DNA of 64,000 nt from Candidatus Lachnocurva vaginae (GCA_011082265.1 CP049781.1:476333-540332), one strand, 5' to 3'. Positions 37,739 to 64,000 are shown, counted from the stretch's first letter. Numbers and translations: made by a program. The notes: generated by a model from the letters alone, not told the origin.

Positions 37739-37915
37739 ATGGCAATATATGCATCAAATGCGGGTAAATCGGGAGGAGAATTCTTTACACCCGCAGATAT
37801 CTCAAAGCTTGGAACTGTAGGGAAATCGGAGGTTAATAAGGTGTATATAAATAAGGTGTATATAAAAAAGTTTAAAAACAGGAAAGGATGTTTAAAATAT
37901 TATGAAAAACCTTGA
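37739..37915 (+). pseudogene. 58-codon relic of a Type I R-M hsdM gene (AdoMet-binding [11 protein letters not shown] region) ending at a duplicated aataaggtgtatata core
   Basis: It translates to [36 protein letters not shown]. This is about 85% identical at the nucleotide level to 63541-63657 in the hsdM N-terminal ORF. It breaks at the same VNKVY codon. Confidence 0.75.
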
Positions 37916-38090
37916 AGGATTATGTGGATGTGGGAACGACGACCGTAAAGCAATCATTAACATTTGTGTAATGTCAGCGAAATATTTTAACAATAAAGCG
38001 TCAGTACAGGATATTAACGAAGCTTTGAAAGAAAACGGTCAATCTCCTCTTACAGAAGAGGAGATGAAAAGTTTAAACTTAACTGATTAA
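37902..38090 (+). CDS. hypothetical small protein (62 aa)
   Basis: ORF only, weak RBS, no recognisable motif. Confidence 0.25.
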
Positions 38091-38120
38091 CCTTTTTAAC
38101 AAAATAAAAGAAGCGGATTA

Positions 38121-38327
38121 TTGGCTTATAAGAGTTACTATATAAGAAATCAAAAGGTTATGCTTGATTTTGAACTTGCTGAAATATATGGATATGAAAC
38201 AAAAACATTTAATCAGCAAGTCAAGAATAACATAGAAAAATTTGATGAAGATTTTAGATTTCAACTTACAAAAGATGAATGGGAATTTTTGAGGTCAAAA
38301 ATTTTGACCCCATCAAGATTTTATTAG
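38121..38327 (+). pseudogene. N-terminal fragment of an ORF6N-domain protein (truncated)
   Basis: RNQKVMLDFELAEIYGYETKTFNQQVKNNIEKFDEDFRFQLTKDEW matches the ORF6N N-terminal consensus. Only 68 codons, whereas full-length proteins are about 250 aa. Confidence 0.55.
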
Positions 38328-38793
38328 ATCAAAAGAATTAGTGCAAATAGCAGTACATACAAATGAAAATACAAAGGATATAGCTGAAATAAAGTCGCAA
38401 ATGGCTACAAAAGAAGATAATGTTATTACTAGGTATAATTGTGATAGGTATTATTGTATACCAATATCCAATGCAAAAAGCATTAGCACAAAGAAATTTC
38501 ACAAGTTATATAAATAAACAAGGTGTAGTTTCTGATGAAATTGAGAGTAAAAAGATAATTAAAGATTGGAAACAAGGAGGATATTTGATAATTTAACTTT
38601 TCGTAATGATGAAAACAACAAATACTATTATCATTATCAAACATGGACACATAAAAAAGGAGAAAAGTTGAGATTCAATAGAATTACATTAAGTATTATT
38701 GATGAAAAAAAATCTATTGTGCTAGATGATCCTTATGATGGGAAATGTAAATATCCCCCTATTCAGGAGTAAAAATTAATATAATTATTAAGT

Positions 38794-38826
38794 GACTAAG
38801 GACATTAAGTCTTTAGTCGCTTTTTG
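38794..38826 (+). terminator. rho-independent terminator
   Basis: gactaaggac-attaa-gtctttagtc followed by gcTTTTT. Confidence 0.6.
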
Positions 38827-39210
38827 TTAGTAGATTGTTTATGGTGTGTAAAACAGAATTACAAAAGATCAAATCAGCGATTGAAAGCAAGCAAGTGGAA
38901 ATGAAAGAATTAGAAAAAGTAATGGAAAAGATAGAGAAAGAAGCGGACAAAATAGAAAAGGCACAAAATAAAATGAAGTTGCTTTTGCAATCTGGTTTCA
39001 AAAATATTTAAAACAATAACTGTTGACAATTTTTATTTTTGTACTTTTTTTTTATAAAAATTTTTTGATATAATTATGACAAGTTCCTAAACACTAATTT
39101 TTATTATTATTTATTTAATTTCTACCAAAAAAAATATAAAGGAGTTTATTGTTTTTTTATTTACAATATTAATGACAACTTTCAAAGTGGCGTTTAGGGA
39201 ATTTACTAAT

Positions 39211-39239
39211 TTGACATTTCTAAAAGTATCTGTTATGTT
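39211..39239 (+). promoter_or_regulatory. promoter TTGACA-17-TATGTT driving the antitoxin-RNA repeats
   Basis: -35 at 39211-39216, -10 at 39234-39239, 12 nt before the first repeat. Confidence 0.5.
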
Positions 39240-39250
39240 ATTCGATAAAT

Positions 39251-39329
39251 AAAGAGGGTGTCCCACTACCGTTAAAGGTGGAGCATTAAAGAAGGTGTCT
39301 CACTACCTATATCCAAAAGGTGAAGTATT
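39251..39329 (+). ncRNA. ToxI/antiQ-like type III antitoxin RNA: two imperfect tandem repeats (37 and 42 nt)
   Basis: aaagagggtgtcccactaccgttaaaggtggagcatt and aaagaaggtgtctcactacctatatccaaaaggtgaagtatt, then an aaag-initiated terminator. The arrangement of repeats, terminator and toxN matches type III TA loci. Confidence 0.6.
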
Positions 39330-39336
39330 AAAGCGA

Positions 39337-39366
39337 ACAGAGAGGATAAAACCTCTCTGTTTTTTT
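39337..39366 (+). terminator. rho-independent terminator between the antitoxin repeats and toxN (type III TA attenuator)
   Basis: acagagagg-ataaaa-cctctctgt followed by TTTTTTT. Confidence 0.85.
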
Positions 39367-39377
39367 AGGAGAAGACA

Positions 39378-39935
39378 ATGGCAGAAGCGATTAAATATGG
39401 ATTTTATGCTGTAAATCTTGATTATTTTGAATATCTAAATCAAATAGATTCAGAAGTTTATTACAACCCATCGTATAGAAACAGTATTAAACCATTTGTT
39501 TGAATTATTGTTGGGATAGAAAACTATAATTATTTTATTCCAATATCTTCTGCAAAGGAAAAACACAAAAGATGGAAGAATGTTTCTGATGAGCATTTTT
39601 TGATTTATGAAGTATTTGATAATAACATTACTATAAATGGAGATATATACAAATATTACTCTGATGAAGAAAAAATGCACATATTATCTATATTGGATAT
39701 TAAGAAAATGATACCTGTACCGAATGGTTGTTATGAAAGAATTGAGTTTGATGAGCTTGATGACATCAGATACAAAGACTTATTTGAAAAAGAATATGCT
39801 TTTTGCCTTAAAGTAAAAACAAAGGTTTTGAAAAAGGTAGAAAAATTATATCAGAAGCAAAAGGAAACAGGAACTATCAGAAGAGCAAATTGTAATTTTT
39901 CAGAGTTAGAAAAAGCAATGTTGGATTGGAAGTAA
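39378..39935 (+). pseudogene. ToxN/AbiQ-family endoribonuclease toxin gene with an in-frame TGA at 39501-39503 (Gly-to-stop position in the conserved KPF-G-IV motif)
   Basis: MAEAIKYGFYAVNLDYFEYLNQIDSEVYYNPSYRNSIKPFV*IIVGIENYNYFIPISSAKEKH...MIPVPN...RANCNFSELEKA matches the ToxN/AbiQ pattern (FY.I...YL..D..V...KPFIGIV...YL.PLSS.K.KH...MIP...C.F..LE). The reading frame is continuous apart from the single TGA. Confidence 0.65.
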
Positions 39936-40136
39936 AATATAAATTACTTATGAATAATCAAGGAAGTGGAATAATATTCTGCTTCTTTTTTTTGCGAGGG
40001 AAAGTATTTATAAGTATGATACAAGACAACGGAGAGGTGTTTTTAGAACATTGCAGCTAAAAGAGGCATAGAGTATGCCTAAGATAAAAGCAAGTCTTAA
40101 AACACATTCCATCACTTAATACAACAAAACAGTTAG

Positions 40137-40173
40137 AGCGATTAGAAAAGTAAAACATCTAATCGCTTTTTTT
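40137..40173 (+). terminator. rho-independent terminator
   Basis: agcgattag-(13 nt)-ctaatcgct followed by TTTTTTT. Confidence 0.75.
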
Positions 40174-40196
40174 ATTGCGATGAAAGGAGGAGGCAA

Positions 40197-40439
40197 ATGA
40201 CAGATGAAGAAAACAAACCTGAAAACACATTTAGCAAAAAAACTGGAAAAACAAACTATAAAGTTACAGTGCATTTCAGCGAAACCAGTGATGAAACAAT
40301 CACAGATAAAATAAATAGACTTATTCAGAAAGAATGTGAAGATATGAGTTACAAAAAAGAGATGCTGATTTTTTTGATAATAATTATTGACAAAAAAAGG
40401 TTAGATAATATGATTATTTTAGATAATCTTATTATCTAA
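40197..40439 (+). CDS. hypothetical small protein (80 aa); its C-terminal ~15 codons are encoded by the operator palindrome
   Basis: Strong RBS AAAGGAGGAGG; no recognisable family. Confidence 0.35.
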   Translation: MTDEENKPENTFSKKTGKTNYKVTVHFSETSDETITDKINRLIQKECEDMSYKKEMLIFLIIIIDKKRLDNMIILDNLII

Positions 40440-40457
40440 AATAATCATATTATCTAA
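40401..40457. promoter_or_regulatory. 57-bp palindrome (perfect 20-bp arms ttagataatatgattatttt / aaaataatcatattatctaa around a palindromic agataat-ctt-attatct core); likely TetR operator
   Basis: Exact reverse-complement arms. It lies 18 bp upstream of the TetR start and overlaps a TTGACA at 40387-40392. Confidence 0.6.
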
Positions 40458-40475
40458 CCATGGGAGGTAGATATA

Positions 40476-41114
40476 ATGTCGTATAGTTCAGATTTAACAA
40501 AAAATAGAATTTTAGAATGCGCGAAAGAGGAGTTTTTAGATAAGGGCTTTGAGGAAGCACAGGTGGCTGGAATTGCTAAATTGGCAAATGTAACTACAGG
40601 AGCAATTTATCGTCATTTTAAAAATAAGGAAGCCTTATTTTTCGCTCTAATCGAAGAAGTATATAATTACACTCTAAATGTTGTTGCTGATGCTGAAAAG
40701 AAAAGTGAGGATGAAAATCAAAGAAAACATTTTGAATTAATAGATGAAAAAGTTGCAATAGAAGAGTTCTTTTCAGAAACAATGTTGTTTGTTGATTATA
40801 TGTATGCTCATTTTGACGATTTCAAACTGATTCTTGAATGTAGCAAAGGTTCGAGAGTAGAAAATTTCATTGAGGAAATCGTTGAAAGATATACGATTAA
40901 AAATATGAAATTAATACATAATGACTTTCCGCTACAAATAAATAACGGAATAAAAGAGTTTGAGGTTCATGTTATTACAAAAGGCTATATAACATCTTTG
41001 TGCGAGTGTATTCTTCATAGAATTCCATACCAAGATGTTAGCGAATATATCAGAAACATAGTTGCTTTTCAGTATTATGGTTGGCAAGGATTGATGAATA
41101 AAAAAGAAAAATAA
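40476..41114 (+). CDS. TetR/AcrR family transcriptional regulator
   Basis: N-terminal HTH with TTGAIYRHFKNKEALF. Confidence 0.85.
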   Translation: MSYSSDLTKNRILECAKEEFLDKGFEEAQVAGIAKLANVTTGAIYRHFKNKEALFFALIEEVYNYTLNVVADAEKKSEDENQRKHFELIDEKVAIEEFFSETMLFVDYMYAHFDDFKLILECSKGSRVENFIEEIVERYTIKNMKLIHNDFPLQINNGIKEFEVHVITKGYITSLCECILHRIPYQDVSEYIRNIVAFQYYGWQGLMNKKEK

Positions 41115-41174
41115 GTTTTTTGCCATCAAGTTAGCCAAATCTAAATAATGTTCGAATGAAGGGAGGCTTTATTC

Positions 41175-42926
41175 TTGGAAAATAAAAATAAAAGTGCTAT
41201 TTCAGAGTTATTTAAATACGCTGGTAGCGAGAAAACACAATTATACAAATCAATTTTGTTAGCAATCATAGGGGAAGTATTTGGAATGATTCCCTTTTTA
41301 GCTATAGCTAAATTGATAGAAAAAATTTATCAGTCAGAACTGTCATTTCAAACAGTGTTTTCTATAACTTTTGTAGCTTTAAGTGGACAAATTTTAAAAG
41401 GCATTTTCACTTTGTATTCAACAATGACTTCACATAAAGCAACCTTTCACATTTTGAAAAATATAAGAAGCTTAGTTGCAGAAAAAATGTTAAGAGTACC
41501 TATGGGTGTAATGATAGATACTCCTATAGGTAAATTTAAAAATTTAATTGTAGATACAGTGTCTAAGCTGGAAGATTCAATGGCTCATTTTATGCCGGAG
41601 ATAACATCAAGTATAGTATCTCCTGTTTTGTTTTTGGTTTTGATTTTTGCTTTGGACTATAGGATGGGGTTGGCTTCGCTACTTACAATTCCTTTAGGAA
41701 TGCTTGGATATATAGGTATGATGAGGGATTATGAGTTTAGAAGCAAAACATATACTACAGCTCAAAATAATATGAATAGTACTTTGGTTGAATATGTTAA
41801 TGGCATTGAGGTCATAAAAGCTTTTAATCATAGTACATCTTCATATGAAAAATTTACTAGTGCAATTCAATTTTTCCATGATAGTACCCTTGCTTGGTGG
41901 AAACAAAGCTGGTTATGGTCAGCATTTGTTCAAGCAGTTATGCCGTCAACACTTTTGGGGACTTTGCCAGTTGGTGCATATCTATATATGAATTTTCAAA
42001 TATCTCTATCAAATTTCATTGTGTGTATTATCTTACCTATCGGCTTTATTGCACATTTAATGAAAATCGGAAAGTATTCGGAGCAATTCAGTATGGTTAA
42101 GGCAAGTTTAGATGTAATAGATGAATTTTTATCGACAGAGGAACTTAAAAGACCAAAAGAGAAGGTAATCTTTGATGATACTATTTACCATTTTGAAAAT
42201 GTTTCATTTGCATACGATAAGGAACTTGTGTTAAAAAATATTAACTTTGAATTAAAACCTAATACAGTAACGGCACTGGTTGGCAACTCAGGATCCGGAA
42301 AATCAACTATAGCAAAGTTAATGGCTGGCTTTTGGGATCCAACAGCAGGTAACATAATTTATGGAGGTAAAAAAATTTCTGAAATTCCATTTGAACAGCT
42401 AACAAGTGAGATAAGCTATGTTGCTCAAGATAATTTTTTATTTAATACAAGTATAAAAGAAAATATAAAAATGGGAAACCCAACTGCAAGTGATGAGGAG
42501 GTTATTGAGGTGGCTAAAGCTGCATCTTGCCATGACTTTATTATGGAACTTGAAGATGGATATAACACAAAGGTCGGTGATGCAGGAGGTTATTTGTCGG
42601 GTGGAGAAAGGCAAAGAATTACCATTGCAAGAGCAATGTTAAAACAATCTAAGGTAATAATTTTAGATGAAGCAACTGCATTTGCGGATCCAGAAAATGA
42701 ATATCTCATTCAAAGTGCAATTAACAATCTTATTAAAGGAAAGACTCTTATAGTGGTTGCTCACAGACTTTCTACTATTACAAATGCTGATACAATCCTT
42801 GTTATGAAAGATGGAGAAATTGTAGAGAATGGAACTCATGAAAATCTTGTGAAAAAAGATGGAGTATATGCTTCCTTGTGGAAAAATTATGTGGGCAGAC
42901 TAGATGACGGAAAGGAGGCGATTTAA
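41175..42926 (+). CDS. ABC exporter, fused permease-ATPase (type I exporter half-transporter)
   Basis: 6-TM N-terminal domain, GNSGSGKST Walker A, LSGGERQR signature. Confidence 0.85.
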   Translation: MENKNKSAISELFKYAGSEKTQLYKSILLAIIGEVFGMIPFLAIAKLIEKIYQSELSFQTVFSITFVALSGQILKGIFTLYSTMTSHKATFHILKNIRSLVAEKMLRVPMGVMIDTPIGKFKNLIVDTVSKLEDSMAHFMPEITSSIVSPVLFLVLIFALDYRMGLASLLTIPLGMLGYIGMMRDYEFRSKTYTTAQNNMNSTLVEYVNGIEVIKAFNHSTSSYEKFTSAIQFFHDSTLAWWKQSWLWSAFVQAVMPSTLLGTLPVGAYLYMNFQISLSNFIVCIILPIGFIAHLMKIGKYSEQFSMVKASLDVIDEFLSTEELKRPKEKVIFDDTIYHFENVSFAYDKELVLKNINFELKPNTVTALVGNSGSGKSTIAKLMAGFWDPTAGNIIYGGKKISEIPFEQLTSEISYVAQDNFLFNTSIKENIKMGNPTASDEEVIEVAKAASCHDFIMELEDGYNTKVGDAGGYLSGGERQRITIARAMLKQSKVIILDEATAFADPENEYLIQSAINNLIKGKTLIVVAHRLSTITNADTILVMKDGEIVENGTHENLVKKDGVYASLWKNYVGRLDDGKEAI

Positions 42927-44651: not shown

Positions 44652-44659
44652 GTGATGAA

Positions 44660-46866: not shown

Positions 46867-46877
46867 AAATAAGGAGA

Positions 46878-47465: not shown

Positions 47466-47595
47466 TCAATCTATATTAGTGAGAAAAAAAGGATTAAATA
47501 ATGGAGTTAATTTACATCTATTGTTTAAGCTATACTGGTAATTATCATAAAAAATCAAATTTAAAATATAGATAAATAGCAAATTTATTTCTCTT

Positions 47596-47633
47596 AAGAG
47601 GATTTATGCCTTAGAGCATAAGTCCTCTTTTTA
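47596..47633 (+). terminator. rho-independent terminator ending the TetR-ABC cluster
   Basis: aagaggatttatgc-cttaga-gcataagtcctctt followed by TTT. Confidence 0.75.
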
Positions 47634-47722
47634 TGTTCAAATAAATCATTAAAAATCAAAAATACTATAAAAAAATAAAAATTCTGGTTACCAAAGAGGG
47701 TGAATTTCACTTTATAAAGTGA

Positions 47723-48099: not shown

Positions 48100-48560
48100 G
48101 TTGTATTGATGTCAAAGGCTTAATAGCCGGGTGCAAGTTTGCCCTTGTGTAGCAAGGCTTAGCGAGGGCTATCGTTAAAAGGTTTAATGCGAAGCGGCTG
48201 TAAGCCAAACCGTTCGATGACGGAAAAATTCAGCTCCGGCTTTCCCATGCTTCGGATCGCCCGGCGATGAACAGGCAGCTGTTCCGATTATGGAGCCCTA
48301 CACTGCCGCTTATCCTCAATAGTAAACAGAACGATGTATTGTTTATCGGGCCGGAAACACCTTAAAATACATCAGCCGTAAAATAATTTACACCACCAAT
48401 GCCATAGAAAGCCTAAATGCGGGGTGCAGACGCCTTAATAAAGGAAGGACGATATTCCAAGCTTGCAGCACTTTTTTTCCTATGGTACAATGAATTTGCT
48501 TGGGGGATGACCACAAGCGTCAAATGGCAAGCTGTGCCGGTAAGGTACAAGTTGGACAAA
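48100..48560 (+). mobile_element. degenerate relic of an IS256-family (Mutator-type) transposase gene in a GC-rich patch
   Basis: 48362-48460 encodes LKYISRKIIYTTNAIESLNAGCRRLNKGRTIF, matching the C-terminal IS256 signature (IRRLIYTTNAIESxNRQxRKVTK..IFP). A frameshifted continuation follows. The GC content is clearly higher than the surroundings. Confidence 0.6.
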
Positions 48561-48665
48561 TAGCTGTTTACAGAGATTTTTCTACGCACTCAATGTTGTC
48601 GATTTTGTAAACGGAGTAGGTGATCCAAACAGTGCAAACGGCGCTGCTTCAATGGGAGGCTGATT

Positions 48666-49613
48666 ATGAAAAAGCAAAGCAAAAACAAACGAAACATGCT
48701 GCTAGTTGTGTGCGTTATAGTTTTTGCGATGCTTTTTGTTGTATTCGGGCTCTTAAGGAACAGAATTTTTCAGTCAAGTATTGTAAGAAACGTTAGCGAC
48801 AAAATCGATTTTATCGTCAATACTAAACAACTTAAAATCCCTGATGACGCCCTTGCTTTTTCGGTGTATGACATGGATGCGAACAGTTACTTATTTTATG
48901 AAGGAGCGGGTCAGGAGCCAACCGTTGCAAGCCTGTCAAAACTTTTTGCTATAGATTATGCACTTAGTAAGGTTAAGCCTGATGACGTTTTTGAAGCAAA
49001 CGAAGAAACGCTTAAACTTGTTCCTGCCGGCTCATCGGTAGCTAATTTGACACGTGGCACGTATACTGCAAAGCAAATTATGCAGGCGATGCTTGTTCCA
49101 TCCGGAAATGATGCGGCGTATGTTATGGCATATAATATCGGCAAAATGGATTTAGGTGCAGGTCATAGCGCAAAAGAATATATCAATCATTTTGTAAAAT
49201 CACTGAGAACCTATTTAGCACGTGAGGGCTATGGCAAAACAGATCTCTTTGACCCAAGTGGATTTTCTATGCAGGCCACTACCAATTTGGATGACGTCAA
49301 TAGGGTGACGCTTAAACTGCTCGATTACGATTTTGTCAAAGAGTGCATGGGAGAGAGCTCATTTACCATTACAACAAAACAAGGTAATTTTACGTGGAAA
49401 AATACCAATGAATTTTTAGATAAAGACTCGCTGTTTTATAACAAGCACATCAAAGGTGTAAAAACGGGAACTATGGCTTCTTCTTATAATATCATTGCCC
49501 TGTACGAGAACAATGGCAAAAGATATTTAATTACCTGTTTAGCTGCACATTCCAATAAAGACAGATATCGAGCCGTTCGGAACGCCATAAATAAGGTTAT
49601 AGAAAAGCGTTAA
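48666..49613 (+). CDS. serine-type D-alanyl-D-alanine carboxypeptidase (peptidase S11 / PBP5-like)
   Basis: SxxK (ASLSKLF), SGN (PSGNDAAY) and KTG (VKTGTM) motifs; N-terminal signal/TM. Confidence 0.7.
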   Translation: MKKQSKNKRNMLLVVCVIVFAMLFVVFGLLRNRIFQSSIVRNVSDKIDFIVNTKQLKIPDDALAFSVYDMDANSYLFYEGAGQEPTVASLSKLFAIDYALSKVKPDDVFEANEETLKLVPAGSSVANLTRGTYTAKQIMQAMLVPSGNDAAYVMAYNIGKMDLGAGHSAKEYINHFVKSLRTYLAREGYGKTDLFDPSGFSMQATTNLDDVNRVTLKLLDYDFVKECMGESSFTITTKQGNFTWKNTNEFLDKDSLFYNKHIKGVKTGTMASSYNIIALYENNGKRYLITCLAAHSNKDRYRAVRNAINKVIEKR

Positions 49614-49615
49614 CC

Positions 49616-49948
49616 CTATAGCTTGGGGCACAAAGGCAACATATTATCAATCAAATCTTCATCATTGTAAGAAAGCGTGATGCCATTTAGAGCTAGAAAG
49701 ATTAGCATGGCGTGGGTGCCAATGTGCTTATTGCCATCAATAAAAGAGTAGTTTTTGATCAATCCAAAGGCCAGCCGTGTGGCTTTATCCAGTAGTGAAG
49801 GAAAAAGTTCACTTTTATCAAAAGTCTGTAGTGGAGTTTTTAGCACAGAGTCTAGCATTCTCTCATCACGAATACCTAACGAGCCACCACTTGTTTCAAT
49901 CAGAGCTTGATGAAGTCTAACTACTTGATCTTGGGTTAGATACTTCAT
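49616..49948 (-). CDS. doc: type II toxin Doc (death-on-curing, Fic fold)
   Basis: Fic motif region FIDGNKHIGTHAM. Confidence 0.8.
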   Translation of the reverse strand: MKYLTQDQVVRLHQALIETSGGSLGIRDERMLDSVLKTPLQTFDKSELFPSLLDKATRLAFGLIKNYSFIDGNKHIGTHAMLIFLALNGITLSYNDEDLIDNMLPLCPKL

Positions 49949-50187
49949 TTAGCTAATTCCTCATAGACTTTTGTATTCTTTTTGATGAACATATCCGATA
50001 AAGCCATGACCTCATCATCAGCTGGAGCAGAAATCTCATCGACTTTAGGGAACTCTAAAATCACATAGCGCGGAGAGTTGTTTTTTAGTATTACAGCTGA
50101 GCCGTATTTATCGACAAGACGAGCAACCTTTGAGAAGTTTTGATTGGCTTCAGAAATTGAAATCAGCGTATCTGTATTTACATTCAT
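49945..50187 (-). CDS. phd: Phd/YefM-family antitoxin
   Basis: 80 aa, ISISEANQNFSKV N-terminus; overlaps doc by 4 nt. Confidence 0.65.
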   Translation of the reverse strand: MNVNTDTLISISEANQNFSKVARLVDKYGSAVILKNNSPRYVILEFPKVDEISAPADDEVMALSDMFIKKNTKVYEELAK

Positions 50188-50440
50188 AACGATAGCCTCC
50201 TTTTAAGGAGATTATACCCTATATTTTAGGATGAATCAATCCTAAGTATTTCAAATCTAGTCATAACTATTAACTCAGAAAAGATATGAAAGGTGTCAAT
50301 CGGAACTCATGGTTTTACGATTGAAGCTGTATAAATACAACAGTTTTAGGTTTGAGCATTAGACGGCAATGCTAGCAAAAAACACTTGACTATGACGTTG
50401 CGTAATACTTTATTCTAGTGATAAGGAAGGAGGTGAGATA

Positions 50441-51015
50441 GTGAAAACAGTGAATGAAGTCAGCAAGATAGCAGGAATTAGTATTCGTACTCTTCAGTAT
50501 TACGACAAAATCGGTTTGTTAAAACCGTCCGCTTATTCGGAGTCAGGATATAGGTTGTATGGTGATGAGGATTTAAAGGTACTACAATCCATTTTACTGT
50601 TTAAAGCTTTGGAATTTCCGCTCAAAGAAATTAAAGAAATAATAACCAGTGAGCATTTCGACAAAGATTTAGTACTGGAACAACAAATCAAATTATTAAT
50701 CCTGAAAAAAGAGCATTTGGAAAATTTAATTCTTTTTGCAAAGGGATTAAAAGCATTAGGAGGTAACTATATGAACTTTACAGCATTTGACACAAGCTAA
50801 AATCACAACACAGCGATTCAGTTGAAGTTCAGGCTTTGGTAAAGAAACTGCAGGAATTTATTACAGCTAATTTCTATAAGTGCTCGAATGAGATTTTATC
50901 CGGACTTGGCAAGATGTATGCTTCTGGTGGTGATTTTACGAAAAATATAGATGCGTTTGCAGGCGAAGGGACATCAGTATTTGTCAACAAGGCAATCGAA
51001 TATTATTGCAAGTAA
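50441..51015 (+). pseudogene. MerR-family (TipA/Mta-like) regulator disrupted by a frameshift/deletion between the HTH-dimerisation region and the TipAS-like C-terminal domain
   Basis: The N-terminal ORF 50441-50800 carries the MerR HTH (IAGISIRTLQYYDKIGLL). A C-terminal ORF in another frame (about 50791-51015) reads ..NFYKCSNEILSGLGKMYASGGDFTKNIDAFAGEGTSVFVNKAIEYYCK, which is TipAS-like. The frames switch near 50790. Confidence 0.55.
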
Positions 51016-51475
51016 GTTTTATAATCGAATTATTGATTAAAAACACCTAATTAACTAATGTAGTGCTCCCAAAAGTTGGACCAAAAATCTAAATTTTGGA
51101 GATCATTACAAAAAGGTGCTTTAATTTTCTACCAGAATAAAAAATTGTTTTGTAGAAAATAGATTCTTAAACCTTTTAACGATAGCTTTTCCTATCGTTA
51201 AAAAGTGCACCCAATATCCATAGTGTGCACTCAAAAAAGTGTAAATAGACTACCTGTTCACTCAATCAACGTGGAAGTTATAGAGTTGATACAAAAGATG
51301 TAAATTTAGAAATCCTGCATTTTAAGCAGTTTTATAAGCATTTTTAGAATTGAAAATCAGGCTGCGAAATATGCCCGGAAAAGTGTATAAAACCTTGGTG
51401 TTTTTATAGTCGGATAGACAGGAATATTGAGAATAGGTTGGGCATACGAAAATAATGAATGGTAGGTGATTCTAG

Positions 51476-54729: not shown

Positions 54730-54738
54730 GAGAAAATA

Positions 54739-56771: not shown

Positions 56772-56823
56772 AATTAAATAAGATACTGTATAATACAGTA
56801 TATATACTTGAAATGAGGCATCT

Positions 56824-57477
56824 ATGAGAATATTAACTGTTGAAGATGATAGTATTATAAGAGAGGGTATAAGTGAATATCTTTCGGAATTCGGATATAC
56901 TGTTATTCAAGCTAAAGATGGCAGGGAAGCCCTATCAAAATTTAATAGCGATATAAATTTGGTTATCTTAGATATTCAGATACCTTTTATAAATGGCTTA
57001 GAATTATTGAAAGAAATTAGAAAGAAAAGCGATTTACCAATTATAATTTTGACTGCATTTAGTGATGAAGAATATAAAATTGATGCATTTACTAATTTGG
57101 TAGACGGATATATGGAAAAGCCATTTTCATTACCGGTTTTAAAGGCCAGAATAGATGCTTTAATTAAGAAAACTTATGGGCATTTAGAGAAATTTGAATA
57201 TAAGGATTTATCGGTTAATTTTAATAGCTATACGGCTAAAATAAATGATAAAGAAATAGATGTGAATGTAAAAGAATTAGAAATTTTAAAATGCTTATTG
57301 GACCATGACGGACAAGTTTTAACAAGAATGCAAATCATTGATTATGTATGGAAAGACAGCGAAGAAATTCCTTATGATCGAGTAATAGATGTATATATAA
57401 AAGAACTTAGAAAAAAATTACAATTAGACTGTATAACTACTATAAGAAATGTGGGATATAAATTGGAGAGAAAATGA
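56824..57477 (+). CDS. OmpR-family response regulator
   Basis: Receiver domain (LTVEDD...DLVILD) and a winged-helix C-terminus (TIRNVGYKLE). Confidence 0.85.
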   Translation: MRILTVEDDSIIREGISEYLSEFGYTVIQAKDGREALSKFNSDINLVILDIQIPFINGLELLKEIRKKSDLPIIILTAFSDEEYKIDAFTNLVDGYMEKPFSLPVLKARIDALIKKTYGHLEKFEYKDLSVNFNSYTAKINDKEIDVNVKELEILKCLLDHDGQVLTRMQIIDYVWKDSEEIPYDRVIDVYIKELRKKLQLDCITTIRNVGYKLERK

Positions 57478-58784: not shown

Positions 58785-59477
58785 CACCGCCACTTGTTTT
58801 TCTTACGCAGTTTTAAAAAATGTTGGATTCGGATTTTAACAGCTTTATTTCAAAGCATTCGGTGCGTTTTTAGCGTTGCACACAGCTTCATATAATGCTG
58901 CTAATCTTATTTATCACCGGTGACTTCCACTATTCCCTTTACATCTGAAACCGACTCTACAAACAGCATGCCTTGTCCCGGAATATCCAGATTCAAACGA
59001 TGAAATAAAGCTTCCGTGACCGTATTCGCTAGCACGTTTATCAAGATAGTTAAAATTTGGCATAATCAAAATCTCCTTTGTTATTTATGTAAATGGAATT
59101 TTCCCTTTGTTAATACTGAATCTAATGCTCAATATAAATATCTAGATGCAGTTTATTCATTGATTCGATTCCATTCTTGTAAATAATTCCAGTTGTATTA
59201 GTAGCTTTTGCAATCTGGTTTATATTGTTTGTTGCATTTGAAAGCAGCCATTGTAAGTTTCTAAATGGTTCTAAATCTACAACATAAATTTATTTTTCTA
59301 TTATCCATAGTATATCTCCTTATCATAAAATATTGGGGTCTTAGGGTTCTCCCTAACAAAGTAAAATTGATAAAAAAAGAAGCAGTCCATAAAGGTTCTG
59401 CTTCATCAATTTTTCGTAAGTGGGTACTCACTTACTGTGCTTGCTATTAAAGTTAAAAGCGTTAATCGTATATTAAG

Positions 59478-60569
59478 TTATTTTTCTAAATCTTTAGTAT
59501 TATCCTCGAGTTCTAAGAACTTATCAAAATCACTTTTATAGAGTCTATCTTGTATAATTCTAAATTTTTCAAACTCACTCTCTGCGTGTTTTTTAGCAAG
59601 AGCTGCAGACACTTTTCCTGAATCATTTAAGATTTCTTTATCCCATAATTGTAAAAATCCATTTAATCTTTTTTCCCAATCTTCCATTGTCATAGGAATA
59701 TGTCTTTCTGCTTGCAGTTCTGCCATGTCCAAATAAGAGGAAACAATTCTTTGCATTTGATTTAATTCTTCTTCGTTTAGATAATTTTTTGCAACGACTA
59801 CATCATATTTATGAATTTTTGAATCTGGAGAGCCTTCCCAAGTTGTAAGTCCCATATTTTTCGCTTTGTGATTGGCTCTATCTACAATTAATTCAGCTGC
59901 AGTTTTTCCATGAATTGCATAGTGGAGTTTATTTTGAATAGCGGCAAAAAATCTTTTTGTTGCTTTTGCAGATGGGTCATAGTCTAAAGAAGTGGCATAA
60001 ATATCTGTGATTTTTTGATAGAATCTTCTCTCCGATAATCTAATTTCACGAATTTTTACAAGTAATTTTTCAAAATAATCCTTGGTAAGTTTTGTGCCAG
60101 AATTTTTTAATCTTTCATCATCCATTGCCCAACCTTTAATTGTAAAATCTTTTACAATTTGGTTTGCCCACTTTCTAAATTGGACGGCACGTTCATTATT
60201 TACTTTAAAGCCTACTGCAATGATTGCTTGTAGGTTATAGTGCTTTGTATTATATGATTTTCCGTCGTTTGCAGTTATTAAGTATTTCTTAATAACTGAA
60301 TTTTCGTCTAATTCGTTATCGTCAAATATTTTTTTTAGATGTTGATTTATTGCGGAAACACTTACATCATAAAGAGCTGCCATCATCTTTTGAGTAAGCC
60401 AAATATTCTCATCTTCATATCTAATTTCAATAGCTTCCTTATCATCGCCGTTAGCTGCAATAAAAGTTAAGTATTCAGCAGCAGATGATCTAATTTGAAG
60501 CTCATTTTTATCATGATTTTCGTTTTTATTTTTATCAATTTTTCTACTCATAATTTCCTCCAAGTACAA
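59478..60569 (-). CDS. RhuM-family protein (ORF6N-type N-terminal DNA-binding region)
   Basis: ENIWLTQKMMAALYDVSVSAINQHLKKIFDDNELDENSVIKKYLITANDGKSYNTKHYNLQAIIAVGFKVNNERAVQFRKWAN matches the RhuM consensus. Confidence 0.75.
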   Translation of the reverse strand: MYLEEIMSRKIDKNKNENHDKNELQIRSSAAEYLTFIAANGDDKEAIEIRYEDENIWLTQKMMAALYDVSVSAINQHLKKIFDDNELDENSVIKKYLITANDGKSYNTKHYNLQAIIAVGFKVNNERAVQFRKWANQIVKDFTIKGWAMDDERLKNSGTKLTKDYFEKLLVKIREIRLSERRFYQKITDIYATSLDYDPSAKATKRFFAAIQNKLHYAIHGKTAAELIVDRANHKAKNMGLTTWEGSPDSKIHKYDVVVAKNYLNEEELNQMQRIVSSYLDMAELQAERHIPMTMEDWEKRLNGFLQLWDKEILNDSGKVSAALAKKHAESEFEKFRIIQDRLYKSDFDKFLELEDNTKDLEK

Positions 60570-61275
60570 ATTTCATTCTACCTTTAAACACTGGAATAGT
60601 AATTAAGAATACAATTACATAATGTATAAAGGAATTTATCATCATACTTTTTGTTATTGTTAATTGATGATAAGTTTGACTTATTATTTTAAAAGCGGTT
60701 AGTGTGCTTGTTATAAAATAAGTGCCAACCATAGGGCGACTGATAATCCTATAAAATCAATCAAAAATGCTGAGATTTTTACAGAGTAGGTAGTGATGAG
60801 ATAGTAGAAAACTATTTTTCTGTTTGAGATATAATACAAACTGAACTTATATTTATAGCATAGCACAAACATTCGAGTTTGTAAATAAATTGTGTTTATT
60901 ATCAAAGAAAGAAGGAAGCCATTGCATTGATTAGCACCTAAATTTAATATTGGCATTCATTGACTGAAAGAATTTAACAGGTGAAGAATACAGTATTTCT
61001 TGTGAAATTATAAATAATCAATTCTTAAAATCTGAAATAGAAACCGGGGAGATGCTAGAATGTATAAGCTTTTATGGGGAAGAAAGGATAAAGCTATCCA
61101 TTGGAGCCTATGGGGAAAGTTGGGGATACATAGGGTGCAGACTAATGGAAACAATTTTTTGCCGTGTGTCTTTTACGCACAAAAGTGCAAGTTAGTCAAT
61201 TTGGGCGTAATTTTTAAGTTGAACTTGAAATTTACGCCCAAAATGTATACACTATTATGCAAAGGGGGGCCTTTT

Positions 61276-62448
61276 ATGATAAAAAGAAAAGTTGCTGAAA
61301 AGTTGGTACAAGTTTCCAAGCAAGTGCCTGTAGTTACCGTAATTGGGCCGAGACAATCTGGTAAAACTACCCTAGTAAAGGAGTGTTTTCCAGAATACAA
61401 TTACGTAAATTTAGAAGATCCCTTTACTAGAGCGTTAGCCACAGAAGATTACCGAGGATTTTTTGCAAGCTACAAAGAACCTCTCATTATAGATGAAGTT
61501 CAGCGAGTACCTGAGCTTCTTTCAGCAGTGCAAGTTATGGTTGACGAAGATAGAGAGAGAAATGGGCGATTTATACTAACTGGAAGTCATCAATCCACCT
61601 TGCAAAAAGAAATTTCTCAATCTTTAGCAGGTAGAACGAGCATAGTGACGCTTCTCCCATTAAGCATGGATGAACTTGCCGAAGATGGACGTCTAGGGAA
61701 ATTATCTGCCAATAAGTTATTAATTCAGGGTTTTATGCCTGAATTATATAGAGAAAATTCAAGAGAAAGCAGTGTGTATTATCGCGATTACTTGAATACA
61801 TATGTGGAAAAAGATTTACGCGAAATGTTAGAAGTTAAGAATTTGGATAAGTTTCTACGATTCTTAACCTTGCTTGCAGGCAGAGTTGGGCAAGTTGTAA
61901 ATTTGTCTTCTATGTCTGGAGACGTTGGCGTTTCATCTGCAACTTTGTCGCAATGGCTGTCAGTACTTGAGGCATCTTATATAGTGTATAAGTTACAGCC
62001 ATATTTTTCTAACATTTCAAAGCGGCACACCAAATCGCCAAAAATCTATTTTACAGAAATTGGATTGGCTTCATACTTATTGGGAATTGAAACAGAAAAT
62101 CACGCAAATAGAGATCCATTACGGGGAAATCTTTTCGAAAATCTAATCGTTTCGGAAATCCTAAAATCTCGATTGAACGAGAACAAAACTCCTCAGCTAT
62201 TTTACATGAGAACAGAAAAAGGGATAGAGGTGGATTTGATTGCAAAGGAAGAAAATGCTTTATATCCAATTGAAATAAAAACATCAATGACACCTAATAG
62301 GTCGTTTTCTAAGAATTTACTATCTTTTGTAGATGCAGAAGAAAATGCAAAGAATCCTAAAATTATTTACACAGGACAGTCTTACCCACAATTTAATGGC
62401 GTTGAGTATGTTAACTTCAAAGATACAAAAAACTACCAGATGTTCTAG
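61276..62448 (+). CDS. AAA_14 / DUF4143 family ATPase
   Basis: GPRQSGKTT Walker A, DEVQ Walker B, C-terminal DUF4143-like region. ATG 61276 follows an RBS; the track starts at 61060. Confidence 0.7.
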   Translation: MIKRKVAEKLVQVSKQVPVVTVIGPRQSGKTTLVKECFPEYNYVNLEDPFTRALATEDYRGFFASYKEPLIIDEVQRVPELLSAVQVMVDEDRERNGRFILTGSHQSTLQKEISQSLAGRTSIVTLLPLSMDELAEDGRLGKLSANKLLIQGFMPELYRENSRESSVYYRDYLNTYVEKDLREMLEVKNLDKFLRFLTLLAGRVGQVVNLSSMSGDVGVSSATLSQWLSVLEASYIVYKLQPYFSNISKRHTKSPKIYFTEIGLASYLLGIETENHANRDPLRGNLFENLIVSEILKSRLNENKTPQLFYMRTEKGIEVDLIAKEENALYPIEIKTSMTPNRSFSKNLLSFVDAEENAKNPKIIYTGQSYPQFNGVEYVNFKDTKNYQMF

Positions 62449-62734
62449 ATAACGCTGATGTAAATGCTTATGCATTGTCAAGCAAAATAAACAGACGGTC
62501 GTTACTATGGGATTGAAATCTCTATGAACTGAGTTGTCTGTGCTGTAGGGCTTTACTTGGCGTGTTGGTACGATGATTATCTGGATTTTGTTCCGATGAT
62601 TGCTTACTTTCGTATGGTTTTAGAAGAAAATCTCCTGCGACTATATAAAATAGCGGCAGGAAATAGGAAAAACATGAATTTATGCTATAATTATGCTGTA
62701 TCACTGAAATGGATACGTGAGTAGATGAAATAAG

Positions 62735-62947
62735 ATGACCTGTTCAGAAGAAATAAAGAAAATTCGTCAAAAATGCTTTCTGTCACAGGAGGCTCTTGGA
62801 AGAGAACTTGGTGTATCTTTTTCCTCTGTCAATCGTCGGAAAAGCGGAAAGGTCAAGCCTAATATGTCAGCTATGAAAAAAATTAAAGAATTCTGCGAGA
62901 CGCAGGGTATTGATTTCAGTGTGTTGGGAGCAGAATGGACTAAATAA
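62735..62947 (+). CDS. small XRE-type HTH protein upstream of hsdM
   Basis: 70 aa, IRQKCFLSQEALGRELGVSFSSVNRRKSG. Confidence 0.5.
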   Translation: MTCSEEIKKIRQKCFLSQEALGRELGVSFSSVNRRKSGKVKPNMSAMKKIKEFCETQGIDFSVLGAEWTK

Positions 62948-62955
62948 CTGAAAGG

Positions 62956-63687
62956 ATGAATAATATAATGGTCCTAGATACTAAAAAAGAACAGGAACGT
63001 GAAGAGCTTCACCGTGCTATATGGGCGATTGCTGATGAACTTAGAGGAGCTGTCGACGGATGGGATTTTAAAAATTATGTCCTCGGTACGATGTTTTATC
63101 GTTATATTTCAGAGAATATTGCAAATTATATAAATGAAGGCGAAATTGCAGCGGGAAACACGGATTTCGATTATGCAAAAATGTCTGATGATGATGCAAA
63201 AGAAGCAAGAAGCGGACTTGTTTCGGAAAAAGGATTTTTTATCCTACCGTCTGAACTTTTTTGTAATGTAAGAAAAAGAGCAAAAGATGATGAAAATCTT
63301 AATGAAACATTGGAACAGGTATTTAGACATATAGAAGAATCGGCTAAGGGAAGTGAGTCAGAAGATGACTTTGCAGGACTTTTTGATGATTATGATGTTA
63401 ATAGCAATAAGCTCGGTGCAACTGTAGCTAAAAGGAATGAAACATTGTGTAAGCTTCTTAATGGTGTGGCTGATATGAATCTTGGTGATGTTAAGAACCA
63501 CGATATTGATGCATTCGGAGATGCTTATGAATATCTTATGGCGATGTATGCATCAAATGCAGGTAAATCGGGTGGTGAGTTCTTTACTCCTGCTGATGTA
63601 TCAGAACTTCTTACAAGGCTTGGAACTGTAGGAAAATCGGAGGTTAATAAGGTATATGAGAAGTCATTGATTTATCTAATACAATGA
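62956..63687 (+). pseudogene. hsdM: Type I R-M methyltransferase HsdM, N-terminal domain only; truncated after the VNKVY codons, just before the expected DPxCGSG motif I
   Basis: HsdM_N region (LHRAIWAIADELRGAVDGWDFKNYVLGTMFYRYISE) and the [10 protein letters not shown] motif. It ends ..EVNKVY-EKSLIYLIQ-stop where HsdM proteins continue ..VNKVYDPACGSG. Confidence 0.7.
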
Positions 63688-63758
63688 AACTTTGAGGTTA
63701 ATTGGTTAAAAAATTTATTTCAGATAAACAAAAATGTAATTTTGGCTAGCTAGTGCTA
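63658..63758. repeat. 101-bp direct repeat, copy 1, beginning exactly at the hsdM truncation point; it contains a 14-bp segment (63681-63694) that is inverted at 63860-63873
   Basis: Identical to 63900-64000. Confidence 0.9.
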
Positions 63759-63899
63759 AAATTTTTTATTTTAGGTGGGGTGTGTAATTGTAAGGGTGTC
63801 TTGTCGAATTTTGAAAAGCTAGTATTTTACAGGGCTTTTAAGTTATTCATAGACTGATACAAAGTTTCATTGTGCTAAATACTGTAAGTATATAGTGTA

Positions 63900-64000
63900 G
63901 AGAAGTCATTGATTTATCTAATACAATGAAACTTTGAGGTTAATTGGTTAAAAAATTTATTTCAGATAAACAAAAATGTAATTTTGGCTAGCTAGTGCTA
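63900..64000. repeat. 101-bp direct repeat, copy 2; it runs into the window edge
   Basis: Identical to 63658-63758. Both copies are preceded by aagGTATAT / aagTATATag. Confidence 0.9.

Follow-up and report, generated by a model that had tools for sequence, protein, structure and literature searches.

The hsdM gene at the right end of the analysed window, a stretch of 64,000 nucleotides from Candidatus Lachnocurva vaginae, is split. Very probably (we put it at about 0.82) it was split by mobile DNA, a composite containing a prophage, which large serine integrases would have inserted at a fixed codon of the methylase. The evidence for integration is comparative and consists of occupied sites aligned against empty ones.

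The split hsdM gene and its crossover site

The following features define the break:

62735-62947, plus strand: HTH_3 gene (Pfam), 70 aa, immediately 5' of hsdM and kept before intact and split hsdM alike
62968-63659, plus strand: 5' part of hsdM with HsdM_N and the start of N6_Mtase, 100% identical up to 63659 to the intact 522-aa hsdM of L003, L004 and L006
63658-63659, plus strand: GA crossover dinucleotide, bases 1-2 of the Asp codon in DPACGSG

The hsdM reading frame spans 62956-63687 and matches HsdM_N and only positions 2-43 of the N6_Mtase profile (Pfam); gene callers place the start at 62968, which yields 239 aa. The match with the intact allele extends to ...GTATATGA, and the break falls after 63659. 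Beyond the crossover the frame runs through nine foreign codons to a stop at 63687. The product is not a complete HsdM: its N6_Mtase domain is truncated and motif I (DPxCGSG) is absent, and a coding sequence for DPxCGxG was found nowhere in the window. The cut falls directly ahead of motif I, and both methylation and restriction by the resident type I system should therefore be lost.

Strains L003, L004 and L006 provide the empty site, an uninterrupted hsdM accompanied by hsdS and hsdR. Here attB reads ...GGTATAT[GA]TCCAGC. The corresponding attL reads ...GGTATAT[GA]GAAGTC, and attR reads ...AAAATA[GA]TCCAGC. The sequence common to all is GA, and GA is also all that is shared in the host hsdM, a second hsdM borne by the element (hsdM2), an MmeI-like gene and hsdM of Streptococcus equi; a longer target duplication is absent from these. 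The flanking 960 nt are 100% identical in occupied and empty strains, hence the gain or loss of the insertion is recent. A preliminary description of this DNA had taken the shared breakpoint as the sign of a site-specific process and had proposed that related genomes be compared to define an att core. The first point is borne out, and the comparison leaves the GA dinucleotide as the only shared sequence. It had further let HsdM end after ..EVNKVY where a repeat begins; the split itself stands, and the exact position is now corrected to 63659, with the GA at 63658-63659. In the proposed mechanism the GA in the Asp codon of the AdoMet-binding DPxCGSG would be exchanged by large serine recombinases (LSRs). 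Since GA is non-palindromic, the element would enter in a single orientation. A circular attP junction or an excision product of this exact hsdM composite was not seen.

The composite beyond the window end

The window itself contains no serine-recombinase gene or remnant (tblastn), in agreement with the earlier statement that an intact integrase is missing from it. The search past position 64000, which had been recommended, was productive in related contigs. L001, L002 and L120 match the window at 99.9%. Past its end the 242-bp unit described below is completed in L001 and L120 and is followed by a 69-aa ORF and a 550-aa serine recombinase (LSR-550), about 1 kb beyond the window; a Phd gene and the 5' part of hsdM2 come next (L001, L002, L120). 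Two paralogs, LSR-588 and LSR-525, are located at the far end of the insertion. All three combine PF00239, PF07508 and PF13408 (Resolvase, Recombinase, Zn ribbon), belong to PHROG 95 (integrase), have PDB matches for the catalytic domain and are 40-50% identical pairwise. We infer that one or other of them acts at hsdM. The candidate genes for a recombination directionality factor carry no informative family: a 69- or 61-aa ORF overlaps the LSR start, the 69-aa ORF matching no Pfam or PHROG family, and SHOCT and GerE-like genes precede LSR-588.

Type I system genes are also borne by the element. In L029-L036 hsdM2 is intact (895 aa, ...RPYTLHDPAAGSG), and in L002 it is broken at CAC[GA]TCC: a prophage which carries two further paralogous serine recombinases interrupts it at the Asp codon that is also hit in the host gene. 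The prophage body encodes tape measure and tail proteins, holin, a GH25 lysin, DNA polymerase A and a D5 primase; conjugation genes were not found in the approximately 45 kb of element body seen. The structure of the composite was pieced together, as attL and attR junctions come from different loci and only L014 and L037 are known to lie on one contig, on which the 3' part of hsdM2 was not found. So assembled, the insertion would begin at the window end with the tandemly repeated 242-bp module, followed by the 69-aa ORF, LSR-550 and the Phd-like gene, and then by the 5' part of hsdM2. At the hsdM2 Asp codon the prophage would follow, with two Dcm methylase genes, a LlaJI-type restriction system and replication, tail and lysis genes; its right end would comprise LSR-588 and LSR-525, cargo and the P arm. 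In at least one strain this P arm is joined directly to the host hsdM at its 3' half, the piece for which a search had been suggested. The data thus support the view that several elements accumulated at the hsdM att site, nested and in tandem, as the preliminary description had surmised when it considered repeated accretion at one att site.

The left-end module and the att half-sites

At the crossover the following features are arranged:

63658-63899, plus strand: 242-bp left-end unit, copy 1, with a P' half-site at its start and a P-like half-site at its end
63660-63690, plus strand: P' half-site on the element side, 19 nt followed by ATACAATGAAAC at 63679-63690
63900-64000, plus strand: 242-bp unit, copy 2, identical to 63658-63758 and cut by the window end

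The segments 63658-63758 and 63900-64000 are identical in 101 of 101 positions at a spacing of 242, and the second copy leaves the window. A match that is exact over 101 nt cannot be due to chance. Within it ACAATGAAACTTTG is located at 63683-63696 and 63925-63938, and in inverted orientation at 63860-63873. All sequence features initially described, i.e., the 101-bp repeat, the inverted 14-mer, the truncated hsdM, the relic and the tandem core, are indeed present. The interpretation of the 101-bp repeats as att duplications bounding an element has to be abandoned: they are part of the tandem 242-bp left-end module.

The P' half-site motif and the P-arm motif, GTTTCATTGTAT-N19-[GA], are reverse complements of each other. 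The geometry [GA]-N19-ATACA recurs in the left end of the prophage, in the S. equi element and in attP-like junctions, and attR reads ...GTTTCATTGTAT-N19-[GA]TCCAGCATGCGG. An attP assembled from both arms, GTTTCATTGTAT-N19-[GA]-N19-ATACAATGAAAC, shows imperfect dyad symmetry about its GA; in L024, L025, L051-L053, L090 and L097 the sequence P-[GA]-P' is contiguous. The P-like half-site of the 242-bp unit, GTTTCATTGTG at 63864-63874, lies 25 nt ahead of the next GA, its outer motif being placed at N24 rather than N19.

The number of 242-bp units varies, with one in L002 and L048, at least two in the window and at least three in L049, a MAG; in L029-L036 the unit is contiguous with the recombinase region. 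The additional copies most likely stem from recombination of attL with the internal attP-like site. This would be an unorthodox way to form the array, as canonical LSRs are not known to act on attL and attP as a pair. Appreciable weight, short of even odds, must be given to replication slippage or unequal homologous crossing-over in which no recombinase takes part, or to an assembly artefact. Once two copies exist, unequal homologous exchange accounts for copy numbers of one, at least two and at least three. Short-read scaffolds break or collapse at the array (L001 contains a run of N, L016 a k=55 join), and a GAGA microhomology is present at both ends of the unit. Against this, the array begins precisely at the crossover GA, every unit is flanked by P' and P-like half-sites with the 14-nt inverted arms 25-26 nt on either side of the junction, and the initial duplication requires a non-homologous event. 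An artefact is contradicted by the presence of the repeat in the window sequence and in the independent MAG.

The hsdM relic and the accessory DNA behind it

Some 26 kb upstream a second piece of hsdM is found:

37726-37846, plus strand: hsdM relic, 121 nt, a probable host-side B arm just 5' of the integration point, ending ...AATAAGGTGTAT
37835-37870, no strand assigned: 15-bp minisatellite AATAAGGTGTATATA (TRF, 2.4 tandem copies)
37902-38090, plus strand: 62-aa ORF which always accompanies the relic; homology between strains stops at about 38123
38124-62734, no strand assigned: accessory mosaic (Pfam) which differs in content among strains and is not a delimited element

Aligned with window hsdM 63525-63657 the relic shows 109 identities in 121 positions (90.1%) and a single 12-nt gap. 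The indel had been recognized before; the identity is somewhat higher than the 85% or so then claimed. Homology begins at 37726, and the 58-codon ORF at 37739-37915 is a read-through artefact. Against the second hsdM allele of the species, represented by L013, the identity of the relic rises to 97.5%, and both the relic and the window hsdM end at GGTTAATAAGGTRTAT. The relic adjoins a SAM_HAT gene in 10/10 strains; the 62-aa ORF matches no Pfam or PHROG family.

The region had been viewed as an island of approximately 26 kb bounded by the two hsdM copies. This cannot be maintained: the relic is fixed in 10/10 strains examined while the DNA past it varies, and P or P' half-sites of the att family are absent between 37.9 and 62.9 kb. 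The mosaic encodes a decayed ORF6N, ToxN, TnpW, TetR, ABC transporters, an S11 peptidase, Fic/Phd, MerR, a two-component system, RhuM and a DUF4143 ATPase (Pfam). Likewise, the reiterated core at the relic is not an att core. AATAAGGTRTATA is the arm on the host side that adjoins the crossover GA, and the reiteration is a minisatellite with two copies in eight strains and three in L015 and L018; because copy number differs among strains the unit drifts by slippage and does not serve as a recombinase core.

The relic probably represents the arm on the host side left by a much older insertion, of the same family, in another hsdM allele; the fragment would later have been trimmed on its left side and become fixed in the species. 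This att origin is argued from position and from the context in L013 and L017. The chance that a second hsdM fragment ends 0-2 nt from the same point in a gene of about 1.5 kb is roughly 0.1-0.2% (a rough estimate), and four other genes have the crossover in question. In L013 and L017 the relic and the 62-aa ORF are followed within about 220 bp by a P arm-[GA]-target junction of the family, and a further deletion in L013 again begins exactly at TAT[GA]. We consider it unlikely that the relic is unrelated to integration, i.e., that it is a product of an ordinary deletion or of homologous exchange between two hsdM alleles and that the att coincidence reflects chance or a fragile AT-rich repeat. 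In favour of such an origin are the junction itself, in which GTGTAT continues with AT instead of GA and no ATACA (P') motif follows at N19, the slippage of the 15-bp unit at this junction, the location of the 12-nt gap between CAAAGCTT repeats, and a left end that looks like an unremarkable deletion end.

Other targets and other hosts

An MmeI-like gene carries the same left end, the joint being ...ILE|DPACGSG (L048 for attL; L043 and L013 for attR). In S. equi the arrangement is hsdM5', 61-aa ORF, LSR-519, 342-aa ORF, hsdM3', altogether 3.2 kb with the same att geometry. In a census of P arms from metagenomes GA was found at N19 in 38/46 junctions; 21/46 abut codons of methylase motif I or motif IV, and 18/46 are without classification. 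The Pfam domains N6_Mtase, MmeI_Mtase, Eco57I and N6_N4_Mtase begin exactly at the motif at census junctions. The targets seen are two hsdM families, the MmeI-like gene, and Eco57I-like and N6_N4 methylases, which demonstrates a general preference for methylase motifs.

It is possible, if rather doubtful, that this att/recombinase family specialises on DNA methyltransferase genes in general, at the motifs for catalysis and AdoMet binding, and that its members (phages, mini-elements and composites) knock out resident restriction-modification while importing their own. The targets may then be motif I, (D/E)PxxGxG (type I, type IIG), and motif IV, DPPY (beta-class/type III-like), in every case at the GA of Asp or Glu. 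Under such a specialisation one would expect 'Russian-doll' nests and a spread across phyla within the vaginal microbiome, and small versions might be reversible on/off switches of restriction.

A related proposal concerns the hsdM insertion itself, which might be a domesticated or semi-domesticated 'intervening element', a reversible switch in which excision by the recombinase would restore hsdM and reinsertion would silence the type I system, resulting in phase-variable restriction on the pattern of comK/phi10403S, sigK/skin and spsM/SPbeta. The recent gain or loss, the 2-bp crossover which permits scar-free restoration of hsdM, and the minimal S. equi version, whose gene content is a small ORF, an LSR and a single further gene, are compatible with a switch, and the idea was raised for elements in hsdM by Ambroset et al. 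(PMC4701971). We judge it improbable here. No sample was found with both occupied and empty states, what is inserted is a large composite containing a full prophage as well as restriction systems of its own, as is typical of a selfish element, and a directionality factor was not identified, the 69-aa ORF having no family.

An ordinary insertion sequence or DDE transposon with terminal inverted repeats and target duplication, in favour of which one could point to the initially noted IS256 relic in another part of the island and to the 14-nt inverted segment near the break, can be dismissed: the downstream sequence contains serine recombinases and no transposase adjoining the break, the duplication does not exceed the 2-bp GA, both inverted 14-mers lie inside one element end instead of at two ends, and unrelated methylase genes are struck at the same codon.

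Comparison with known systems

The closest relatives are the Tn1806-like/Tn1549-family ICEs of streptococci (ICE_hsdM), which carry a serine integrase triplet and split hsdM and other methylase genes such as Eco57I-like and SNF2-methylase genes (PMC4701971; PMC12942858), with GG direct repeats (TGGG...GGGA) at their ends (PMC12942858). Common to both are a set of three paralogous large serine integrases, whose genes point the same way as the target gene, the site-specific splitting of hsdM and other methylase genes, a repeat of only 2 bp, and nesting in other mobile elements that carry methylase targets. LSR-550 is approximately 53-62% identical to the streptococcal recombinases. The differences are clear as well. 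The streptococcal elements are conjugative, whereas the large one described here is a prophage with genes for tail, holin, lysin and DNA polymerase. The recombinase genes are adjacent there and split across the att site here, with one at the left and two at the right. The crossover is GG there, yet GA at an Asp/Glu codon here (38/46 in the census and all junctions studied in detail), and the host is an uncultured vaginal member of the Lachnospiraceae instead of a streptococcus.

A large serine recombinase with GA crossover is a property shared with TnpX/TndX elements. In these clostridial elements (Tn4451/Tn4453, Tn5397) GA is the crossover at both ends and in the circle joint. TnpW-family genes occur in the accessory DNA of the window and 5' of the LSR in L029-L035, and the TnpX catalytic domain is a weak structural-database match to the LSR. 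TnpX/TndX elements differ in being small resistance transposons with looser target choice and low sequence similarity to LSR-550; a specificity for methylase motifs is not known in them.

In A118/phi10403S (comK), SPbeta (spsM) and skin (sigK), which use serine integrases, a temperate phage or phage remnant similarly interrupts a dispensable gene, again at a 2-bp crossover, and excision can in principle restore it. Evidence of regulated excision is not seen here; unlike those prophages, the insertion here targets a conserved motif of many methylase genes, with multiple attB per genome. At rlmH (orfX) the serine recombinases of SCCmec/ccr cassettes likewise line up elements and their remnants in tandem at one chromosomal site, where repeated att-like junctions are left behind. 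SCC insertion, at the 3' end of rlmH, leaves this gene functional and does not involve nesting in an element-borne copy of the target; the hsdM insertion differs in both respects. It is a clear new example of the kind of element known from streptococci, and its mechanism is not new.

Serine-integrase junctions in hsdM

The two broken hsdM copies in the BVAB1 window can be explained as the footprint of serine-integrase elements which land at a conserved methylase motif. The features concerned are as follows.

Features of the window
37726-37846: hsdM fragment of 121 nt (the relic)
37835-37870: AATAAGGTGTATATA in tandem
61060-62448: DUF4143 protein
62956-63687: 5' hsdM ORF, 243 aa
63658-63758 and 63900-64000: direct repeats of 101 bp (101/101 identical, spacing 242)
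63658-63899: 242-bp unit, of which the repeats are the first 101 nt
63683-63696, inverted at 63860-63873: ACAATGAAACTTTG

The 5' hsdM ORF encodes an HsdM_N domain, and its N6_Mtase match covers no more than the initial ~43 profile positions; a sequence coding for DPxCGxG is found nowhere within the window. An exact look-up of the ORF gave no match because gene callers place the start at 62968, and neighbouring window proteins, which occur as exact sequences on many vaginal-metagenome contigs, were used as queries in its place. The DUF4143 protein retrieved contigs of two kinds, with an empty or an occupied hsdM. The empty-site contigs (L003, L004, L006) have the gene order HTH - hsdM (522 aa) - hsdS - hsdR, with 100% identity to the window as far as 63659. 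The occupied contigs (L001, L002, L120) share 99.9% identity with it to the end of the repeat; beyond the repeat follow a 69-aa ORF, the large serine recombinase LSR-550 (550 aa; Resolvase, Recombinase and zinc-ribbon domains) and a Phd-like gene. The other junction was located via a 294-aa ORF, the 3' half of hsdM.

Sites at hsdM (crossover dinucleotide in square brackets)
Empty site, strains with intact hsdM: GGTTAATAAGGTATAT[GA]TCCAGCATGCGGATCAGG
Window junction, hsdM 5' part to element: GGTTAATAAGGTATAT[GA]GAAGTCATTGATT...
Other junction: ...GGTTTCATTGTATCCAACACGTAATGAAAATA[GA]TCCAGCATGCGG

Only GA is common to all three sites; it makes up positions 1 and 2 of the Asp codon in DPACGSG. An overlap of 2 bp without a longer duplication is a serine-recombinase signature, which rules out an IS as the cause of the break. 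Compared across strains, the break in hsdM reads as an integration junction. All features listed in the preliminary description, i.e., repeat, inverted segment, ORF end, upstream fragment and tandem core, are present. It had noted no intact integrase within the window, and neither a serine-recombinase gene nor a remnant of one was found there. Its claim of a site-specific process holds in substance; what it said on the core, the island and the role of the repeats does not.

Geometry of the element arms

The left arms (P') have the form [GA]-N19-ATACA, as seen in the window (ATACAATGAAAC at 63679-63690), at the prophage left end, in a Streptococcus equi element and in arm Z next to the 69-aa ORF. 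The right arms (P) read GTTT(C/A)ATTGTAT-N19-[GA] and are preceded by 3-5 copies of GTTTCAGAGTNCA. The outer motifs of P and P' are mutual reverse complements, thus attP is dyad-symmetric. On the P' sides TTAGGGGTGTG-type repeats are located upstream of the small ORF and the recombinase. A loose pattern (P-arm motif, N19 and GATCC) applied to viral contigs returned mostly chance hits, 2/16 being genuine; a more stringent P-arm pattern took its place when metagenomes were scanned.

Just outside the core site of right arms there are 3-5 direct copies of GTTTCAGAGT(N)CA (L037:9850-10000, L043:15000-15140, L056:12800-12885, L023:14820-14905). Serine-integrase att sites are not usually accompanied by such accessory repeats, which may be binding sites for a directionality factor or for the paralogous integrases.

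A nested element

LSR-550 and the Phd gene are followed by the 5' part of hsdM2, a second, element-borne type I methylase gene unrelated to host hsdM. In L029-L036 hsdM2 is intact (895 aa, ...RPYTLHDPAAGSG), with hsdS, hsdR, a YgjP-like gene and an M78 peptidase downstream. In the window lineage it is broken, CAC[GA]TCC having become CAC[GA]AGAAACCACGACCGAAGTGATACAAT...; here too the Asp codon is hit, and the inserted DNA is a prophage.

Genes of the prophage, in their order
Part 1: HTH gene, two Dcm methylases, AAA_5/LlaJI restriction pair
Part 2: sigma factor, PDDEXK nuclease, ssDNA-binding protein, DNA polymerase A, D5-type primase
Part 3: tape measure, tail proteins, holin, GH25 lysin
Part 4: GerE-like and SHOCT genes, serine recombinases of 588 and 525 aa (LSR-588, LSR-525), surface-protein cargo, P arm

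LSR-550, LSR-588 and LSR-525 are paralogues (40-50% identical). In one strain, in which loci L014 and L037 lie on a single 218-kb contig, the relic and the hsdM 3' half are ~78 kb apart. This fits the sum of island, hsdM 5' part, LSR-550 region and prophage if the right-hand portion of the hsdM2 system is missing, and judged from these distances the strain would carry a fused composite, not a complete nest.

A megablast of the element left end against plasmid and phage collections gave no match, and a genome-contig scan with LSR-550 yielded only relatives of 57% identity or less, with a Peptostreptococcaceae locus (L023) as the sole informative one. Other restriction-modification cargo lies immediately inward of the left arm in the IMG/VR relatives L052:772-4603 and L053:2327-3391: a FokI-like endonuclease accompanied by a methylase of the D12 class, and a C5 methylase. 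Methylase-landing elements seem to bring restriction-modification genes at their left end regularly.

Proteins with at least 90% identity to those of the element (recombinases, HsdR2, M78 peptidase, ClbS/DUF1706 cargo) bear names from Gardnerella, Fannyhessea vaginae and Dialister micraerophilus. These identities suggest a recent sharing of elements across phyla in the vaginal microbiome; the alternative is that the names stem from mis-binned MAG contigs.

The same codon in other methylase genes

The same codon is used in a MmeI-like type IIG gene: on contig L048 the identical left end is joined to ...ACTATATTA[GA]GAAGTCATTG (protein ...HNKYTIL), and L043 and L013 contain P arm-[GA]TCCTGCATGTGGTTCAGGG (DPACGSG...). 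In Streptococcus equi an element of 3.2 kb (L056:8974-13859, CP065191.1) splits hsdM at ...GILY|DPCCGSGG within an otherwise complete type I system. It encodes a 61-aa ORF, a 519-aa recombinase with 62% identity to LSR-550 and a 342-aa HATPase-like protein, and its arm geometry is that of the BVAB1 element. In L023 a pair of recombinases (591 and 525 aa) precedes P arm-[GA]TCCGTTCTGTGGG (DPFCGTGG).

A census of P arms in metagenomes comprised 46 loci, with GA at N19 in 38/46.

Sequences adjoining the P arm in 46 metagenome loci
Motif I-like codons: 15/46
DPPY-like motif IV codons: 6/46
ORF6N-type EQGI site (subfamily with a different N19): 4/46
P'-like arms: 2/46
Unclassified: 18/46
Too short to class: 1/46

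Pfam searches assigned 7/10 tested in-frame downstream ORFs to a methylase family, i.e., N6_Mtase from profile position 52, MmeI_Mtase from position 25, Eco57I, and N6_N4_Mtase from position 7. In six loci (L082, L089, L096, L098, L104, L108) P arm-[GA] runs directly into the motif IV codons (DPPY/DSPY) of a methylase gene of the N6_N4 (beta) class, so that the element family also lands in a second, unrelated methylase motif.

Of note, four loci (L079, L103, L106, L109) have a different N19 (CAATCTCGTAGTTTTCATA) and are fused to EQGIYML... of ORF6N/DUF4783-type genes. ORF6N genes also flank the elements in L029-L035, and a decayed ORF6N is located at 38121-38420 of the window.

The 242-bp unit

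The 101-bp repeats, which the preliminary description counted among the features of a recombination hotspot bounding a ~26-kb island (37739-64000), are the start of a unit which we assign to the element left end. The unit begins with a P' half-site and ends with a P-like half-site (GTTTCATTGTG, 25 nt, GA); past the last unit follows ...AGTGTA[GA]GATAACTTTACAGGAAATGATACAG, i.e., arm Z, itself a P' arm. L002 and L048 have a single copy, and L049, which is an independent MAG, has at least three; the array is a point at which short-read scaffolds break. In L029-L036 unit and Z are contiguous at 92% identity with a different left neighbour, and a division of unit and LSR region into two elements ('E0', 'E1') was dropped on this account. 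In L051-L053, L090 and L097 a phage P arm is joined directly to a Z-like arm without the unit. We treat the unit as part of the element left end, though it is absent from the P-[GA]-Z junctions of L051-L053.

An origin of the array purely by slippage is possible but less likely: every unit boundary is a [GA] between P- and P'-type arms, which speaks for a recombinase. Recombinase action between attL and an internal attP-like Y-[GA]-Z would have generated the array, with later changes in copy number by homologous exchange.

The upstream relic

The relic is 90.1% identical to 63525-63657 (109/121, one 12-nt gap located between CAAAGCTT repeats), and both end at GGTTAATAAGGTRTAT. It adjoins a SAM_HAT gene in 10/10 fetched strains, and the DNA beyond its 62-aa ORF varies. 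The 15-bp repeat, proposed earlier as an att core, is present in two copies in eight strains and in three copies in two; with this variation it is a minisatellite.

With a second hsdM allele of the species, a decayed copy in L013, the relic shares 97.5% identity. A family P arm-[GA] lies no more than ~220 bp beyond the relic-62aa module in both L013 and L017, joined to a different target remnant in each, the 3' part of the MmeI-like gene in L013 and, in L017 (8709-9210), an ORF starting DPDTYKHF... of the ORF6N/DUF4783 type. Further, in a separate deletion in L013 hsdM is joined at TAT[GA] to GAAGA... in the hsdR 3' end, which resembles the start of a P' arm. Taken together, these observations indicate that the right end of the relic is likely to be of att origin. 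We infer it only, since AT stands at the relic junction in place of GA and no ATACA motif is present in the flank. The right flank had no match among viral contigs.

At the L013 deletion (L013:2900-3200, reverse strand) the decayed hsdM is joined exactly at ...GGTGTAT[GA] to GAAGAAAAAAAGCAAAAGG, so that hsdM-3', hsdS and the greater part of hsdR are missing. Within hsdR, GTA[GA]GAAGATAAAAAGCAAAAGG matches the S. equi arm in 14/19 positions. The deletion may have been recombinase-mediated, or microhomology-mediated from a former attL. The relic-62aa-P-arm module of L013 as a simple deletion derivative of the L043 prophage was rejected, the sequences upstream of the two P arms being different.

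The 26-kb interval

The interval contains a decayed ORF6N, ToxN, TnpW, TetR, ABC transporters, S11 peptidase, Fic/Phd, MerR, a two-component system with FtsX/ABC transporter, RhuM and the DUF4143 ATPase. Its gene content differs among strains, and neither P/P' half-sites nor iterons were found within 37.9-62.9 kb; one element of this family spanning the stretch was therefore dropped. What lies between SAM_HAT and an aroD/aroK-like backbone gene is thus accessory DNA that varies, not an island bounded by two hsdM copies.

Several local features were observed. A perfect 29-nt inverted repeat with a 3-nt loop (40399-40459) overlaps the 3' end of a TnpW-family ORF (40197-40439) just upstream of the TetR gene (40476) and could be a terminator or operator. 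The ToxN (type III toxin) ORF at 39600-39935 (111 aa) matches profile positions 64-157 only and is 5'-truncated, given the 185 aa of ToxN in L020; TRF found no toxI-like tandem repeat array upstream of it. The window has ~31% GC, and the circular MAG of 'Candidatus Lachnocurva vaginae' (BVAB1) 31.8% (PMC7136613). A GC-richer block (48168-51186; 40.6% at 48-50 kb vs ~31% elsewhere) contains S11 peptidase, a Fic/Phd pair and MerR; the two arms of a perfect 20-nt inverted repeat, GCTATCGTTAAAAGGTTTAA (48168-48187/51167-51186), enclose the block, which may have been imported as a small cassette. The segment that follows directly, 51193-51212, agrees in 19/20 positions with sequence downstream of the LSR-550 stop in L002; this 17-20-nt match (E = 0.006) is too weak to interpret.

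Mechanism and relation to known systems

Dimers of serine integrases bind to attP and attB and form a synapse, in which both strands are cut at the central dinucleotide; then one half rotates and the ends are religated. The asymmetric GA would fix the orientation of insertion, in agreement with the recombinase and target genes pointing the same way in every case seen.

The main points of value are a clear case of nesting in an uncultured vaginal bacterium, the wide range of methylase motifs that serve as landing sites and a repeated half-site module. The host is an uncultured Lachnospiraceae associated with bacterial vaginosis, and its type I system is intact or not depending on strain. As a prophage with its own LlaJI/Dcm systems replaces the type I system, phage resistance and uptake of foreign DNA should change. 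For annotation, truncated methylase ORFs which end or start at DPxCGxG or DPPY are markers of element junctions. The minimal 3.2-kb member in S. equi would be well suited as a simple experimental model or is a candidate reversible hsdM switch, and integrases with a widely conserved coding motif as attB could provide ready-made landing sites in many bacteria.

Streptococcal ICEs with serine-integrase triplets insert in hsdM with 2-8-bp repeats (PMC4701971), and one such triplet ICE has also been reported in S. salivarius (PMC7563491). For Tn1806-like ICEs, conjugation experiments have demonstrated entry into hsdM, an Eco57I-like methylase gene and, in another ICE, a SNF2-methylase gene, with GG repeats (PMC12942858). 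The BVAB1 case works in the same way, yet has no conjugation module in the ~45 kb covered and uses GA instead of GG. It represents a branch of this kind of system that is carried by phages and mini-elements.
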